Shown here piece by piece: positions 2,795-49,019 of a stretch of 49,227 bases of DNA (positions are counted from its first letter, which is position 1; each line of letters opens with the position of its first letter). Position numbers and translations under genes: made by a program. The stretch lies in IMG/VR virus record IMGVR_UViG_3300045988_084225, positions 1 through 49,227 of that record; one strand, written 5' to 3'. The notes under the pieces were generated by a model. That model worked only from the letters and a program-made list of their open reading frames with translations, did not search any database and was not told where the DNA came from. Source of the stretch: a virus.

Positions 2795-2841
2795 CAACGC
2801 ATTTAAGAATGAAAGTAACAACAACTTTAAAAAACTTATTG

Positions 2842-2880: not shown

Positions 2881-3042
2881 ATGGTAGCAATTGAAATTCA
2901 TTGGGACAAGAAAGACGTTAAACCGTTCTATGAGCAGTTTGAGACATACGAACGTGCTTGGAAAGAGTTTGAATATCAATGCGACAAGCGTTATCAGTAT
3001 GACATCAATCCAGTAAAAGTTGAAATTAGAAAATGCCCATGA
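2881..3042 (+). CDS. Small hypothetical protein (53 aa), first ORF of the early operon
   Basis: ATG-to-TGA ORF (MVAIEIHWDKKDVKPFYEQFETYERAW...). It is below the ORF-track cutoff and follows an A-rich leader. Confidence 0.4.
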   Translation: MVAIEIHWDKKDVKPFYEQFETYERAWKEFEYQCDKRYQYDINPVKVEIRKCP

Positions 3043-3126: not shown

Positions 3127-3268
3127 AGCGAGTATAGGCGGTTAAATGGATAGACCGCAGGAAAATAGCACAACTCGAAGAAATAGACTTGATGAGTGGG
3201 ATTGTCAGTTGATTCGGGTTTTTCGTGAAAGCCTAGGACATTAGAAGGTTCGATTCCTTCACTCGCTT
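3127..3268 (+). ncRNA. Candidate tRNA-like structured element (acceptor-like helix plus T-arm); not a canonical tRNA
   Basis: AGCGAGT (3127..3133) pairs with ACTCGCT (3261..3267). T-arm GAAGG-TTCGATT-CCTTC at 3244..3260. D-arm-like GCGG/CCGC at 3138..3158. It lies in a 254-bp ORF-free gap. Confidence 0.25.
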
Positions 3269-3296
3269 CAATATAAACAATTAAAAATACAAAGCA

Positions 3297-20616: not shown

Positions 20617-22211
20617 CAATCGAAGAACAGATAACACGACTATTATTATACGCTTCGTCTGATGTAAACAAGTTGTACGACAAGTTAATCAAGGAATTAT
20701 CCAAGGTTACAGCCACATCTACAACGAGAGTTACACCAGATGAATTATACACCATTGCCAAGGCTTGCACCCCTTCTGAAAAGGAGAAGGTACAAGCCTT
20801 ATTGGATAAGTACACAAAAGCGTTGCAAGCAGTCATTCAGCAAGGGATAACGCTTGCAGTTCTTCATTCTGCAAATATTCAGCAGAAGGCATTGGCAGCA
20901 TATACACGCTGGGAAGGGAAAGAGGTAGAACAATGGCGCAAAGACACCGCCAATGCTTTTATTCGCAGCCGAATGAATCGTGATGGAGGGCTTAATCTTT
21001 TTGATAGAGTGTGGAACTATACGCAGCAAACAAAGGGTGAGTTTGAGTTAGCTGTTTCGCAGGTGCTAGAACAAGGTATCGGAAAAGGAATATCCGCAGA
21101 ATCTCTTGGCAGACAAGTGCGTCAATTCCTCAATAATCCCGATATGATGTACAGACGCTACCACATGAAGAAACTCATGTCGGATGGCACGAAGAAAGAT
21201 GTCGTTGAGTGGCGCAGACGAGTGGTAGATGAGCAAGGTAAGGTTCACTTCGTTAAGGAGGACTTAGCTAAGGTCGGCACTGGCGTTTATCGTTCCTCAC
21301 GTCAGAATGCTTTGCGTCTAACAATTACTGAAACGAATATGGCTTACAACTTTGCTAATTGCGAAAGATGGAGCAGCGAGCCTTACGTACTTGGTATTCG
21401 TATTCGTTTGTCGGGTAATCACCCAGAGGAGGATATATGCGATGAATTGGCAGGTGACTATCCGAAGGACTTCATGTTTCGTGGTTGGCATCCTCGCTGC
21501 AGATGTTCTATGTCCTCAATATTGATGGATAGAAATAGCGAGGAATGGAAGCATTTGCGCTCTCTGCCCGAGAATGAATACAAGGCTTACCAATCACCCA
21601 ACGCTGTAAAGAACGTTCCCGAGAAATTTAATAAATGGTGCGAGCGCAATGCGAAAAAGTTGGACTTGGCACGCGAGAGGGGGAAGCTGCCTTACTTCGT
21701 GAGGGATAATATGAAGGCTGTTGGGGATATTATAGGTTGGGAAGAAGTAAAATACACTTTAGGTAAAGGAACAATTACAATTCCTAAATACGTAAGCTCG
21801 TCAGATAATGACTACAAGAAACTGATACAAATAGCCGAACACTTTGCATTGAAAGGTTCAAACGTTATTCTTACACCTAAGATGAAACGTCCTCCAGAAT
21901 TTGAGTATTCAAAGTATTATAAATCTTTAATCGGCACTAAATATGAAGGTAAATGTCCAGATTTAAATATTGATGGAAAGTGGTATGAGCATGAGGGGTT
22001 TGTTACAGATAATCCGAAACGTGCTCTTAAAAATATGCTTAATGATGGATTAAAACAATCAAATCGCTTAGTGATTGATCAACCTAGGTTGACGGATAAT
22101 TACATCTTGCATAATATTATTGTTCGTCAGAAACAAGGTCAAGATATAGAAGAAGTTTGGTTAAGGACTGAAAAGGCAATACGTTTAATCTATAAAAAGC
22201 GAGAGAGTTAA
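20613..22211 (+). CDS. MuF-like head morphogenesis protein with a ~225-aa C-terminal extension
   Basis: MuF core ITETNMAYNFANCERW...WHPRCRC ends near residue 305 of 532. The distal part contains KCPDLNIDGKWYEHEGF. Confidence 0.8.
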   Translation: MTIEEQITRLLLYASSDVNKLYDKLIKELSKVTATSTTRVTPDELYTIAKACTPSEKEKVQALLDKYTKALQAVIQQGITLAVLHSANIQQKALAAYTRWEGKEVEQWRKDTANAFIRSRMNRDGGLNLFDRVWNYTQQTKGEFELAVSQVLEQGIGKGISAESLGRQVRQFLNNPDMMYRRYHMKKLMSDGTKKDVVEWRRRVVDEQGKVHFVKEDLAKVGTGVYRSSRQNALRLTITETNMAYNFANCERWSSEPYVLGIRIRLSGNHPEEDICDELAGDYPKDFMFRGWHPRCRCSMSSILMDRNSEEWKHLRSLPENEYKAYQSPNAVKNVPEKFNKWCERNAKKLDLARERGKLPYFVRDNMKAVGDIIGWEEVKYTLGKGTITIPKYVSSSDNDYKKLIQIAEHFALKGSNVILTPKMKRPPEFEYSKYYKSLIGTKYEGKCPDLNIDGKWYEHEGFVTDNPKRALKNMLNDGLKQSNRLVIDQPRLTDNYILHNIIVRQKQGQDIEEVWLRTEKAIRLIYKKRES

Positions 22212-22267
22212 AATACTAACTCTCCCGTGTCGAGGAATCGGTAGTCATTAGCTACAGAATCCTCATT

Positions 22268-24148: not shown

Positions 24149-24508
24149 TTACTCTCTTGCCCATTCTTCAAAGGCGTTTACAAGTTCTAATTTAATGAAG
24201 AGCATATCACCAGTACCATCTCTCCACCAATCTGAATAATGTGTAAGAAATTCTCCATAGATACCATCATAACAGCAGAGCTTTTTGTAAATCGCTCTAA
24301 ACATTGCCGAAATCTTTCTTCCGCTGAAGTGTCCTGCATATTTAGCATCATTCGTGCAATAACCATAGGCATGGTGTCCGTATAAGTTTCCGTCCTCATC
24401 AACGAAATCTACAAGGTCGCTGCCCCAAAATCCATAATTGATAGTATCTTTCAAGAGTTGTTTTTGTTCTTCTGTTAACTCCTTTACTAAGTTTTCGATT
24501 GTTTCCAT
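24149..24508 (-). CDS. Hypothetical protein, first gene of the reverse-oriented operon
   Basis: ATG at 24508 (METIENLVKELTEEQ...). The longer ORF-track start at 24592 would run through the promoter. Confidence 0.65.
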   Translation of the reverse strand: METIENLVKELTEEQKQLLKDTINYGFWGSDLVDFVDEDGNLYGHHAYGYCTNDAKYAGHFSGRKISAMFRAIYKKLCCYDGIYGEFLTHYSDWWRDGTGDMLFIKLELVNAFEEWARE

Positions 24509-24557
24509 TGTTGTTTTGTTTTTAAATTGTTTCTTACTTTCGTTCTTAACTCTGTTG

Positions 24558-24565
24558 CAAAGATA
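24558..24565 (-). promoter_or_regulatory. -7 box TATCTTTG of the reverse-oriented operon; same promoter/leader cassette as at 2787 and 48882
   Basis: The reverse complement reads TTGTTATATCTTTGCAACAGAGTTAAGAACGAAAGTAAGAAACAA. Confidence 0.6.
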
Positions 24566-24678
24566 TAACAAAATTATATTCCAACAAAACAAAAATATAA
24601 GAAAATTATAAGTTTAATATATTTTTATTTCTCATATTTGACGAAATATTTCTATATTCGCGTAAAACTCAATGAGTT

Positions 24679-44625: not shown

Positions 44626-45466
44626 AATCGGTTAATACATCTTCTTCTTCAAGATTGGGAACATCAATGTCGAAATCTATGAGAGTTCCTCTGAATTCGA
44701 AATCAAGTGGGAATGTTTGTTGTTTGCCATCAATTTTTATCAAATATGCACTCTTGCTAAACACTCTAACGTTGTCTGAGTTAGTCAGAATGTTGTCAAG
44801 TCCGAACCCTCGATTATTTTTCTGAGATTGTGTAGTGAAGTTTTTTCTCATAGAAATTTCAAGAGCCTCTGTATCTGTTATTTTCTTGCCAAGAAATGCA
44901 CAAACTGAATTTGGTATAGATATTCCAAAATCACAAATTGCAACATTTATCTTTTTAAATCTATCGTTGTATGCGATAACGCTGAAAGCATTCCCTTTCG
45001 CATTCGCGTGGTCAAAGACATTATTGTATGCTTCAGCGAGTGTCGTTGATATCGGTGTGAAGTCTTTATTGCCTTTGATTATGTTCTTGAAATAATTTGT
45101 CACTTCGCTTGCAAATATATCCTTTTCGCCATCTATGATTTTCCACAAGCTAAAAATATTATCAGCTTTACTTTTAGCGTGTTGCATTCCTAACTTCCAA
45201 TATGATAGAAATCCACAATCTTCACATATATAATTGCAAACATTGCAATTATTTCGAGAAATGCTAACAGAGTATTCTTTATCAATCAGAAATTGTATCA
45301 AGCACGCGAGCGATGTAAGATGGAATGGCTTCAATTCACTTTCGGCAATGCATTCATCGAAATCCAATAGAATATCATTGTCTTCTGATTCGCATTGATT
45401 AACAATGGATGCAATCTTTTGCACCCACTTAATCTTGTTCGCAGTTTCAAATAATATTCTTTCCAT
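44615..45466 (-). CDS. GHKL (histidine-kinase-like, Bergerat-fold) ATPase
   Basis: N-box EAYNNVFDHA, G1-like ICDFGISIP, G2 NNRGFGLDNI. Likely start is MERILFE at 45466. Confidence 0.65.
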   Translation of the reverse strand: MERILFETANKIKWVQKIASIVNQCESEDNDILLDFDECIAESELKPFHLTSLACLIQFLIDKEYSVSISRNNCNVCNYICEDCGFLSYWKLGMQHAKSKADNIFSLWKIIDGEKDIFASEVTNYFKNIIKGNKDFTPISTTLAEAYNNVFDHANAKGNAFSVIAYNDRFKKINVAICDFGISIPNSVCAFLGKKITDTEALEISMRKNFTTQSQKNNRGFGLDNILTNSDNVRVFSKSAYLIKIDGKQQTFPLDFEFRGTLIDFDIDVPNLEEEDVLTDFEF

Positions 45467-45470
45467 GCTG

Positions 45471-45478
45471 CAAAGATA
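45471..45478 (-). promoter_or_regulatory. -7 box TATCTTTG only 4 nt upstream of the ATPase ATG (a leaderless transcript is possible)
   Basis: The reverse complement reads TATCTTTGCAGCATGG. Confidence 0.4.
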
Positions 45479-45520: not shown

Positions 45521-45549
45521 AAAAAAACGAGCATTGAAACCAATGCTCG
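45521..45549 (-). terminator. Strong intrinsic terminator on the minus strand, upstream of the ATPase gene
   Basis: CGAGCATTG (45528..45536) pairs with CAATGCTCG (45541..45549). On the minus strand T7 follows. Confidence 0.75.
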
Positions 45550-45626
45550 CCCGTCCCAAAAGGTTCGATTAATATCTACGATAGTAGAAATTTTATTTGT
45601 ATTTCAATTCCAGCTTTAGGACGTTG

Positions 45627-45634
45627 CAAAGATA
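45627..45634 (-). promoter_or_regulatory. -7 box TATCTTTG (TATCTTTGCAACG) about 80 nt upstream of the terminator
   Basis: It has the same core as the cassette promoters. It would give a ~100-nt terminated RNA or a conditional leader. Confidence 0.5.
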
Positions 45635-47611: not shown

Positions 47612-47791
47612 CTATAATAGATTTAGCTTGTTGACCAAATAACTTCCGAGGTCTGCGTTTTCCTCTTTAGCTCGTTTTTTTAGCTCTACTGCTGCTGCTT
47701 TTGGCAAGCGTGCAAATATACTAACTTTGCCCAATGGTTTTCTGCCTGCACCTTGGCGTGCTCCTCCCCATGTTGGTTTTGTCTTTCCCAT
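47612..47791 (-). CDS. Small ribbon-helix-helix-like DNA-binding protein (59 aa)
   Basis: MGKTKPTWGGARQGAGRKPLGKVSIFARLPKAAAVELKKRAKEENADLGSYLVNKL. Just below the ORF-track cutoff. Confidence 0.5.
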   Translation of the reverse strand: MGKTKPTWGGARQGAGRKPLGKVSIFARLPKAAAVELKKRAKEENADLGSYLVNKLNLL

Positions 47792-47795
47792 TTTT

Positions 47796-48284
47796 TTAAA
47801 TTCTTAACTTGCCCGTGGGGGCAAAGGATGTGTGATAATCCTTGTCTATTACTCTAAGGTAGTCTTCTATTGCCTTATTCACTCCTTCAAGCTCGCTATG
47901 TATGCGAGCATAATTATCGTCATACCAGTTTTGAAATTCTTGGCTATCATGGTCTTCGGGTACGTCATCGCCATAATCGTAGATAAGTCCATTCATATCG
48001 TCAATATCAAGCAGCATGCTTGCAACATTCAGTTGCGGAAGTCCGCTCTCGTTGATTGCGTCTTCTATGTTCTCAATCTCGTCAAAAGTTGAATGGTCTT
48101 CACTACTCTTCGTAAGACTATCCATATTGCAATGAAACTCGTGGCGAATTGCGCATAGCTTTGAAATAAGTTCTGCTTGCTCTTCGCTCATACCATTCTG
48201 CACAGCAATTTCTTCGTTTGTGAGATTGCGAGCGGCCGCGGATTCTCTGCGGTAATCGTATTGCTTTTGATTGAGATGTGCCAT
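47796..48284 (-). CDS. Strongly acidic hypothetical protein
   Basis: 162 aa with D/E-rich runs (DIDDMNGLIYDYGDDVPEDHDSQEF). Confidence 0.65.
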   Translation of the reverse strand: MAHLNQKQYDYRRESAAARNLTNEEIAVQNGMSEEQAELISKLCAIRHEFHCNMDSLTKSSEDHSTFDEIENIEDAINESGLPQLNVASMLLDIDDMNGLIYDYGDDVPEDHDSQEFQNWYDDNYARIHSELEGVNKAIEDYLRVIDKDYHTSFAPTGKLRI

Positions 48285-48321
48285 TCTTGAACTTAACCGT
48301 GATGTCGAGGGCTAGTATGTA

Positions 48322-48552
48322 TTATTCAACTCCCAAATCAGTTTGAACTCCCTTGGGTAAGAATCTCCCAATTTCGTCTTTTGGATTTTTACGACCTCTT
48401 TCAATTTCAAGGTCTGTAAGGTCAAACCCATTCGCTTCGCACATTTCACGAAATTCTTGTTCTGAATCAGCTATGCCGCTATACATAGCAACACCAACGT
48501 TGCAGCCTTTGCCGTTGTAATCAACGGCAGAAAAAGAATATAAATCTCTCAT
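48322..48552 (-). CDS. Small hypothetical protein
   Basis: 76-aa ORF. Confidence 0.55.
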   Translation of the reverse strand: MRDLYSFSAVDYNGKGCNVGVAMYSGIADSEQEFREMCEANGFDLTDLEIERGRKNPKDEIGRFLPKGVQTDLGVE

Positions 48553-48560
48553 AGCATTCT

Positions 48561-48836
48561 TTATTTAATAGGTTCTATTTCGACTGCCCATGCAGCTGTA
48601 GTAGAATCCTCATATGCAACTGCATAGTAATAATTCCCTACTTTAACTACAGCGAAATAGTAGTCATTCTCGTGTGCTGAGAGCCATTCAGTGTAGTCTT
48701 CTCTGCCGATTTCTTTTAAGAAATCGTAAATGGAACCTTGTTCATCTTCTGCCGATAGATACTCGGCATTCTGAAAATAAGAAGGTTCTACTACCTCGTA
48801 AATAGTCCCTTTCGCTTTAATGTCTGTTATAAGCAT
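48561..48836 (-). CDS. Small acidic hypothetical protein
   Basis: 91-aa ORF, first gene after the cassette promoter. Confidence 0.6.
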   Translation of the reverse strand: MLITDIKAKGTIYEVVEPSYFQNAEYLSAEDEQGSIYDFLKEIGREDYTEWLSAHENDYYFAVVKVGNYYYAVAYEDSTTAAWAVEIEPIK

Positions 48837-48881
48837 GATTTTTTGTTTTAGTTGTTCTTACTTTCGTTCTTAATTACGTTG

Positions 48882-48889
48882 CAAAGATA
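48882..48889 (-). promoter_or_regulatory. -7 box TATCTTTG of the right-end reverse operon (third copy of the promoter/leader cassette)
   Basis: The reverse complement reads ATTATCTTTGCAACGTAATTAAGAACGAAAGTAAGAACAAC. Confidence 0.6.
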
Positions 48890-49019
48890 ATGCTTATTTT
48901 TGAAAGATGCAAATTCTTTCAAGATTATTTTTTAGATTATTGAGTTTTTCTTGTTTTCGCTATCTTTGAAACGGGTGCGCCAAATTCTACCATTGTTAAA
49001 ATCGATGATATTAATGTGT

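Follow-up and report, generated by a model that had tools for sequence, protein, structure and literature searches.

Why would a temperate phage place the same stretch of promoter and leader DNA in front of three separate operons? The question is raised by the IMG/VR virus record IMGVR_UViG_3300045988_084225, which we analyzed over its whole length of 49,227 nt (positions 1 to 49,227; the window). The record is a complete virus record, and its terminal 141 nt are identical at both ends, so the genome, 49,086 nt long, is circular or terminally redundant. We classify the virus as a tailed, temperate phage of gut Bacteroidales; its host is placed in Bacteroidota because of the promoter type TAnnTTTG and a G+C content of 40%. 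At three sites, here named P1 (in front of the early operon), P2 (in front of an accessory operon in the head-gene block), and P3 (in front of an operon at the integrase end), a -7 box and the leader downstream of it are repeated. An initial annotation attributed the conservation past the -7 box to a common operator or an RNA-level control element and assigned all three operons to one regulon. We consider a different reading reasonably probable, namely, that the repeated stretch is a modular expression cassette for the host sigma factor, set at three positions, and that specific regulation comes from the DNA upstream of it. The sequence anatomy of the cassette, its distribution, the co-variation with the repressor, the missing RNA structure, and the homology of a P3 product to AcrVA1 were observed directly.

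Anatomy of the repeated cassette

The motif TATCTTTGCAAC occurs exactly at 2787-2798 on the plus strand and at 24554-24565, 45623-34, and 48878-89 on the minus strand. With up to one mismatch, eight sites are found against 0.63 expected, a count reached in 0 of 100 shuffled sequences. The 16-mer TTAAGAAYGAAAGTAA is present exactly only at 2803-2818 (plus), 24534-24549 (minus), and 48858-48873 (minus), against 0.15 expected, and no further copy was found in the genome even when two mismatches were allowed. The strings by which the initial annotation had defined the three sites are present where it placed them, and the repeats lie far above chance. The likeness of P1 and P2, which had been put at 18 identical nucleotides, is larger than that: 2724-2833 and 24519-24628 form an inverted repeat of 110 nt at 87% identity, which includes the whole upstream promoter region. 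P1 and P3 share 48 nt at 85% identity, and P2 and P3 share 54 nt at 80%. A fourth site proposed at the same time is real as well, although it lies at 45622-45634 on the minus strand, about 5 nt from the coordinates first given, and has only TATCTTTGCAACG in common with the others, the leader core being absent.

All three sites carry the -7 box TATCTTTG, of the form TAnnTTTG (2787-2794, plus; 24558-24565, minus; 48882-48889, minus), preceded across a spacer of 19-20 nt by a -33 TTTG (2764-2767, 19 nt; 24585-24588, 19 nt; 48910-48913, 20 nt), in line with the AT-rich spacer of ~19-21 nt of this promoter type. As judged from their sequence, the three sites show the canonical layout of promoters for the Bacteroidetes primary sigma factor, sigma-A. 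The canonical Bacteroidetes sigma-ABfr promoter was reportedly described by Bayley et al. 2000. Its consensus, -33 TTTG and -7 TAnnTTTG, is given together with a map of start sites in B. thetaiotaomicron (PMC7366714), and the three phage sites resemble it in having TAnnTTTG with TTTG 19-20 nt upstream. They differ in that the cassette stays conserved for ~30 nt beyond the -7 box; PMC7366714 reports no such downstream element, its motif searches having covered the DNA upstream of start sites only. The expected 5' untranslated regions (UTRs) of the cassette, ~35-45 nt, come close to the median of 32 nt reported in the same work (PMC7366714).

The core cassette of P1 (2787-2815, plus) consists of the -7 box TATCTTTG, CAACG, a putative start near 2799, and then TTAAGAATGAAAG; a long 3' part of the leader (2816-2880) runs to the ATG at 2881, which opens the first gene of the early operon (2881-3042, plus; 53 amino acids [aa], no assigned function). 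At P2 (core at 24537-24565, minus) and P3 (core at 48861-48889, minus), the -7 box is followed by TTAAGAACGAAAG. The 3' half of the P2 leader (24509-24536, minus), which is A/C-rich and unstructured, extends to the ATG at 24508, and that of P3 (48837-48860, minus) to the ATG at 48836. P1-type leaders measure 64-92 nt, and most P2/P3-type leaders measure 39-44 nt (range, 31-77 nt). The conserved core lacks dyad symmetry.

The core is shared by related phages and joined to different flanks

Related phages also carry the cassette. When the viral collection was scanned for the pattern and also searched from three protein anchors (the repressor and the products of the P2 and P3 first genes), 51 distinct instances were obtained in ~40 contigs. 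Their shared core reads TATCTTTGCAAC-N4-TTAAGAA-NN-AAAG, usually followed by TAACAAACAA, and at least 50 instances, from ~40 contigs of related gut phages and from other elements, are invariant from the -7 box to ~+17. Upstream, the same core is joined to at least five unrelated sequences, the -7 box marking the joint precisely, and downstream it stands before 12 or more different first genes.

The layout is also shared. As in the window, three cassettes each were found in seven relatives (G001, G160, G162, G163, G164, G166, and G169), all at least 95% complete and with a switch-type P1 copy, and reverse-pattern controls gave 0 matches. One copy each lies at the immunity switch, in the head-gene block, and at the integrase end. 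At the mismatch limit used, G167 (94% complete) and G168 (100% complete) have only P1 and P2, and G170 and G171 (both 100% complete) have a single P3-type copy. A motif-blind, protein-anchored alignment of P3 loci showed the stretch from the -7 box to ~+17 to be the best-conserved part, ahead of the coding sequence next to it. Three members of this alignment have deletions of 12-45 nt in the 3' half of the leader.

The cassette thus stands as a conserved promoter bordering variable genes, and one and the same gene can follow different promoters: in nine other phage contigs, the P2 first gene has homologues with a quite different promoter and a palindromic leader. At loci L045-L053 and L055, this alternative leader forms a long palindrome, TGTGTTTTAAAACAAGTT-N-AACTTGTTACAAAACACA, which may be an operator or an RNA hairpin.

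Beyond the related phages, the relaxed pattern also matches more than 119 viral stretches, including elements of ~12 kb and contigs of 60-130 kb. The ~12-kb contigs (L014, L016, L020, L322, L332, L351, and L370) carry two back-to-back cassettes near the contig ends, each in front of small genes that diverge from one another; these contigs may represent a mobile element of another kind, or a satellite, with the same promoter module. A second leader family occurs in the 60- to 130-kb viral contigs (L294-L367) and at Segatella loci L112, L126, and L159. It begins like the cassette, continues with CAAGGTTACTAATTTTAAAAGGTGAGACACACC and a GGTG/CACC hairpin, and stands before at least four different genes.

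Some host tRNA promoters share the core and its spacing

The strict cassette pattern had 0 matches in 185,579 species genomes. With the relaxed pattern TATCTTTGCANNGNNNTTAAGAAA, more than 120 loci are found among the matches listed, nearly all in Bacteroidota and distributed over several classes. Among these matches, 40 of 121 sites lie 15-35 nt before a tRNA gene, with 16 anticodon types represented, and other listed sites precede housekeeping genes such as those for aminoacyl-tRNA synthetases, the ATP synthase beta subunit, flavodoxin, and HU-like proteins. In an unbiased look, 40 tRNA promoters of one complete Bacteroides genome gave the consensus TAYCTTTGCAnC(C)GCA, followed by an A-rich stretch. 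Because of this consensus, we regard the cassette from -12 to +4 as the host stable-RNA promoter consensus.

The part further downstream recurs at a fixed distance. In 89 matches from 151 Bacteroidaceae genomes, TTAAGAAA follows TAYCTTTGCA at a gap of 6 nt 39 times and at one of 5-7 nt 69 times; the remaining twelve gaps together account for 20 matches, and a reversed-pattern control gave 1. Six nucleotides is exactly the phage spacing, and the same peak appeared in a five-genome sample. Examples of position-locked TTAAGAAA on Bacteroidota chromosomes are L074, L086, and L255 (G002:2678836). A literature search for TTAAGAAA as a Bacteroidetes promoter element returned nothing relevant and no description, and neither did a full-text search for the cassette strings return anything relevant. 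It is conceivable, and we put it forward only tentatively, that TTAAGAAA(YAAAG), placed 6 nt after TAYCTTTGCA (~+5 to +17), is an undescribed downstream promoter or 5'-leader element of Bacteroidota, used by a subset of tRNA and housekeeping genes and by phages and other mobile elements of many kinds. If so, the target of TTAAGAAA would be initiation or escape, or a host factor would recognize it, perhaps one that couples output to growth state, and phages would have copied it for immediate, host-tuned expression of early and anti-defence genes.

Two ideas on the host copies were discarded. A 5' hairpin around TTAAGAAA does form in tRNA-His leaders, but as a general explanation it applies to only 13 of 99 distinct host sequences, which are partly orthologous, and it is absent from the phage copies. 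An origin of some long host leaders from rRNA operons found no backing, with no rRNA nearby.

The host copies bear on the suggestion that the leader has no function and that the cassette is a homology patch for the exchange of accessory genes, its copies homogenized by gene conversion. Such exchange would leave mosaic joints of the kind seen here, which fall precisely on the -7 box and past the leader and are followed by different genes; it would also leave the 110-nt repeat of P1 and P2, and in T4-type phages promoter early stem-loop (PeSL) cassettes mediate shuffling of this kind (PMC2839356, PMC4122927). However, positions +1 to +17 are conserved above both the flanking coding sequence and the deletion-bearing 3' half of the leader, and TTAAGAAA keeps its fixed position relative to the -7 box on host chromosomes as well, to which the shuffling argument does not apply. 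We therefore regard a functionless leader as unlikely and retain the reading of a host-type expression cassette.

Upstream modules follow the repressor DNA-binding domain

If the core is of host type, specific control should be sought elsewhere. Divergent from P1 lies the gene of a CI-like repressor (1938-2720, minus), with Pfam Peptidase_S24 at the cut-off and phrog_4, transcriptional repressor, as its assignment. In alignment with relatives, the repressors are mosaics of five N-terminal DNA-binding types and two C-terminal S24-like types. Four of the N-terminal types are related (A1/A2, A3, A4), and the fifth is an unrelated Xre-type helix-turn-helix (B); one C-terminal domain is shared by A2, A4, and B, and the other by A1 and A3. 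The C-terminal domain has invariant QDAM and FRR at the LexA-type catalytic Ser and Lys positions. The mosaics can be traced in the window gene and in L269, L273, L284, L291, and L292. An extra gene of 223 aa is found between repressor and P1 in class B genomes.

The P1 upstream module (2724-2786, plus), a candidate immunity-specific operator region, spans the -33 TTTG and its 19-nt spacer, and the P2 upstream module (24566-24628, minus), with the same spacing, is a copy of it. From -70 to -1, the two are 86% identical in the window. Within genomes, the 70 nt upstream of P1 and P2 are 73-93% identical in 10 of 10 genomes, against a between-class mean of 70%. The P2 module of the own genome was the top score for P1 in five of five class representatives, with one tie, between the near-identical A1 and A2. 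The class of the upstream module follows the N-terminal DNA-binding domain of the repressor and not its C-terminal domain, and the same downstream genes occur with either upstream class. Sequences directly upstream of the -7 box differ in class between copies, and core identity averages 92% across the five DNA-binding-domain classes.

Because the P1 and P2 upstream modules match and co-vary with the DNA-binding domain, P2 very probably belongs to the repressor regulon; the operators probably lie in these two modules, with P2 co-repressed with P1. Gene conversion between the two inverted copies could also keep the modules alike, and we would favour function over it because of the link to the DNA-binding domain. 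Short direct repeats resembling TATAATTTT were considered as operators and set aside as a lead only, being not enriched in the window (21 observed, 18 expected).

These data also bear on the operator that had been proposed in the conserved stretch past the -7 box. Mycobacteriophage L5 has "stoperators," asymmetric repressor sites downstream of the start. Repressors acting from such positions are thus known, and the three sites are the only copies in the genome, which would suit an operator of the CI-like repressor or another phage protein that joins them in one regulon. Yet an operator in the core or leader is not supported. The core is unchanged under five DNA-binding domains, including the unrelated Xre-type helix-turn-helix; dyad symmetry is absent from it; host genomes that lack the phage have it at tRNA promoters; and it is the upstream modules, not the core, that co-vary with the repressor. 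Since the same -7 box and TTAAGAAA stand with the same spacing at host promoters, the core is unlikely to be the phage repressor's operator, and we consider the shared-operator version highly improbable. Of the single regulon with the early operon, the part that concerns P2 is supported, by way of the upstream module matched to the repressor; the part that concerns P3, which has an upstream module of its own, is not supported.

The leader RNA and the P1 switch

Folded together with the first codons, P2/P3-type leaders have minimum free energies of -1.3 to -2.8 kcal/mol (P2 leader, -2.8 kcal/mol, z = +0.56; P3 leader, -1.9 kcal/mol, z = +0.67), and the longer P1 leader has -7.2 kcal/mol. All tested leaders have z-scores of 0 to +0.7 and fold no better than shuffled sequences. 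A search of three regions against Rfam (E ≤ 1) gave no match except a tRNA fragment in attP, where the 3' end portion of a tRNA is located. An RNA-level control element, the second option of the initial annotation, is thus not supported in structured form, and the leader shows no conserved hairpin of the nut/put antitermination type. The A/C-rich 3' half of the leader fits Shine-Dalgarno-independent translation initiation in the phylum Bacteroidota. Shine-Dalgarno sequences are noted as lacking in PMC7366714.

Inside the P1 leader, a reverse -7 box, TATCTTTGCAAT (2838-2849, minus), with a -33 TTTG at 2869-2872 and a 19-nt spacer, marks a putative promoter into the repressor gene. Such a reverse box lies 40-60 nt downstream in every P1-type instance among the relatives. 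The lytic and repressor promoters would therefore stand face to face, with transcripts overlapping by ~35 nt, and because the reverse promoter sits inside the P1 leader, the leader of the repressor mRNA would be antisense to the shared leader.

This arrangement opens another explanation of the repeated leaders, in which the 5' UTR of the repressor mRNA would silence leaky P2 and P3 transcripts in trans in lysogens. This UTR would match the P1 leader as its full antisense and would be ~85-90% complementary to those of P2 and P3; every P1-type cassette is accompanied by the reverse -7 box, complete with its -33 element; in the window, the likeness of the P1 and P2 leaders extends through 2833; and leader variants match within genomes (GAAAG three times in the window, ATAAAA/ATAAAT in G167 and G168). 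Antisense pairing would account for the within-genome likeness of all three leaders. Against it, the pairing is A/U-rich and interrupted, and the core is also kept where a P1-type switch is absent, as in the ~12-kb elements, the 60- to 130-kb contigs, and the host tRNA promoters. On balance, we think antisense silencing quite unlikely as the reason for the repeat, and the host-type cassette remains the reading that we pursue.

An anti-CRISPR-type operon apparently under separate control

The P3 operon (47612-48836, minus) encodes proteins of 91, 76, 162, and 59 aa. The 162-aa product (47796-48284, minus), an acidic protein, is a homologue of AcrVA1 (6nmd_B, E = 4.3e-12; 6nmc_B, E = 1.5e-8), a validated anti-CRISPR, with likeness over two conserved blocks, and it is kept at 46-94% identity in related P3 operons. 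The last gene (47612-47791, minus) encodes the 59-aa protein, which had no match in Pfam and is ribbon-helix-helix (RHH)-like in an AlphaFold2 (AF2) model that shows a disordered N terminus followed by two helices, at low confidence (pLDDT 72). The AcrVA1 homologue and the RHH-like gene are kept at the end of the P3 operon, with homologues in 21-23 related-contig loci, and the genes next to the P3 cassette vary among the relatives.

Compared with P1 and P2, the P3 upstream module is 50% identical, which is background. Relatives with class A2, A4, or B repressors all share a single P3 upstream module. P3 thus looks separately controlled from P1 and P2. An inverted repeat with 8-nt arms, TTGAAAGA-N7-TCTTTCAA (48900-48922), lies over the P3 -33 element as a candidate operator. 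By analogy with acr-aca operons, the 59-aa RHH-like protein probably autoregulates P3 through this repeat; RHH-type Aca repressors act through promoter inverted repeats (PMC13551039). A very strong, immediately active promoter fits an anti-CRISPR role.

Upstream of P3 and divergent from it, a -7-like box, TATCTTTGAAAC (48961-48972, plus), points toward attP and int and is also kept in G001.

The P2 accessory operon

The P2 operon, with genes from 24508 to 22303 on the minus strand, encodes proteins of 119, 187 (DUF7659), 133, and 80 aa, ends at a terminator-like hairpin (22200-22227), and sits between the MuF-like head gene and the capsid genes. Among relatives, the first P2 gene varies and the 187- and 133-aa genes are kept. 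Sequence searches of the P2 proteins in PHROGs, Pfam, PADLOC, and PDB returned nothing beyond DUF7659.

A modular model and the points against it

We propose that the cassette copies would all be read by the host primary sigma factor and would combine a near-consensus -7 box with a stable-RNA-type extension (TATCTTTGCAACG), the conserved sequence TTAAGAAnnAAAG early in the transcript (~+5 to +17), and a 5' UTR that is A/C-rich and unstructured and so suits translation without a Shine-Dalgarno sequence. The core would serve as a generic strong "on" signal for host tRNA and housekeeping promoters, many Bacteroidales phages, and mobile elements, and recombination would move it between genes. P1 would be the lytic side of the immunity switch, face to face with the repressor promoter; P2 would drive the accessory operon in the head-gene block, and P3 the anti-CRISPR-type operon beside int and attP. 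Through their shared repressor-matched module, P1 and P2 would both be silent in lysogens and become active at the same time once infection or induction sets in. P3 would respond to its own module, with the inverted repeat over the -33 element, and would be autoregulated by the RHH-like protein encoded last.

Several observations weigh against this model. The three copies in the window carry one derived YGAAAG state, and P1 and P2 are 87% identical over 110 nt; both features fit gene conversion as well as selection. In G001, the P1 upstream sequence is class B-like and the P2 upstream sequence class A3-like, a discordant pair; this contig ends 51 nt upstream of P1, with the repressor gene off the contig. 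The upstream modules are AT-rich, with a background identity of 61-70%, and their short repeats are not statistically distinctive alone. In the hosts, TTAAGAAA is a minority feature, with ~0.26 exact matches per genome and similar words in ~6 of 40 tRNA promoters of one Bacteroides genome, and many of the host matches are orthologous tRNA-His promoters and thus non-independent. To call TTAAGAAnnAAAG a generic element could therefore overstate it. Finally, start sites, promoter strength, binding of the repressor and of the RHH-like protein, and timing are all features that we infer.

If the model applies, a generic "on" signal can be told apart from the DNA of immunity-specific control in these temperate phages of gut Bacteroidales, which form a large group without cultured members. 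According to the model, the repressor would control an accessory operon that lies 21.7 kb from the switch, and the anti-CRISPR operon would have control of its own. Mosaic repressors with five DNA-binding domains and matched modules at two promoters would amount to a natural experiment on operator specificity, and the variable genes directly behind the cassette would form a shortlist of candidate anti-defence genes.

Relation to known systems

Three themes described before are varied here: the early-promoter cassette present in several copies, the lambdoid immunity module, and the acr-aca operon. The newest lead is the position-locked TTAAGAAA element shared with host tRNA promoters.

In lambdoid immunity modules, the repressor DNA-binding domain and the operators are exchanged together, and coliphages 186 and P2 have face-to-face lytic and lysogenic promoters. 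The window phage is similar in that operator-bearing promoter DNA would co-vary with the N-terminal domain, the S24-like C terminus is exchanged independently, and the promoters converge. It differs from the lambdoid case by a second matched promoter, the P2 site of the window, which lies 21.7 kb away in the head-gene block and drives accessory genes. The cassette also resembles lambda nutL/nutR, a leader RNA element common to two early operons, in that the same sequence lies just downstream of several early promoters; unlike nut, its leaders are unstructured, with no boxB-like hairpin and no Rfam match.

The PeSLs of T4-type phages (PMC2839356, PMC4122927) are likewise short early-promoter motifs repeated at the borders of variable accessory genes and subject to modular shuffling. 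They have a terminator stem-loop and many copies and belong to virulent phages, whereas the cassette has no such stem-loop, is present in three copies, occurs in temperate phages, and is joined to repressor-linked upstream modules. With acr-aca operons, including those with the RHH-type Aca14 (PMC13551039, PMC9410906), P3 has in common an AcrVA1 homologue, a small RHH-like last protein, and a repeat over the promoter. It differs in that the 59-aa protein of the window is without a Pfam family; anti-CRISPR activity and autorepression are predicted for P3.

Among phage-derived promoters, P_BfP1E6, a Bacteroides phage promoter with its own ribosome-binding site (RBS), was reportedly described by Whitaker et al. 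in Cell in 2017. It is a very strong constitutive promoter with a native leader and RBS that works across Bacteroides species and is stronger than rRNA and rpoD promoters; a possible identity with the cassette is a lead only. The promoter has been used in 10.1101/2025.03.18.644028 and PMC11554821. The cassette and the TTAAGAAA element are candidate portable parts for Bacteroides engineering, and they may explain why phage-derived promoters outperform native ones.

Other features of the genome

The integrase gene (217-1458) lies at the left end. The rightward early operon beyond the repressor encodes RecT, an exonuclease, and a replication initiator, and to its right follow the genes for terminase, portal, MuF-like protein, and major head protein. 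A tRNA-Thr(CGT) gene (3191-3269, plus) is located within the early operon, directly after the first small gene. Searches for cultured-phage relatives by megablast and blastn against 50,697 phage records gave no match to the window or the cassette apart from weak similarity over 35 nt in a microvirus from marmot gut.

The fourth -7 box, TATCTTTGCAACG, is followed ~90 nt downstream by a hairpin and a T-run (45530-45634, minus), which suggests that this segment may encode a small terminated RNA. The ~100-nt segment is absent from the same place in the relative G001 (L010). Close by, a further -7 box, TATCTTTGCAGC (45466-45478, minus), abuts the ATG of a 283-aa phrog_3364 gene in both the window and G001, and a leaderless mRNA is predicted for this gene.

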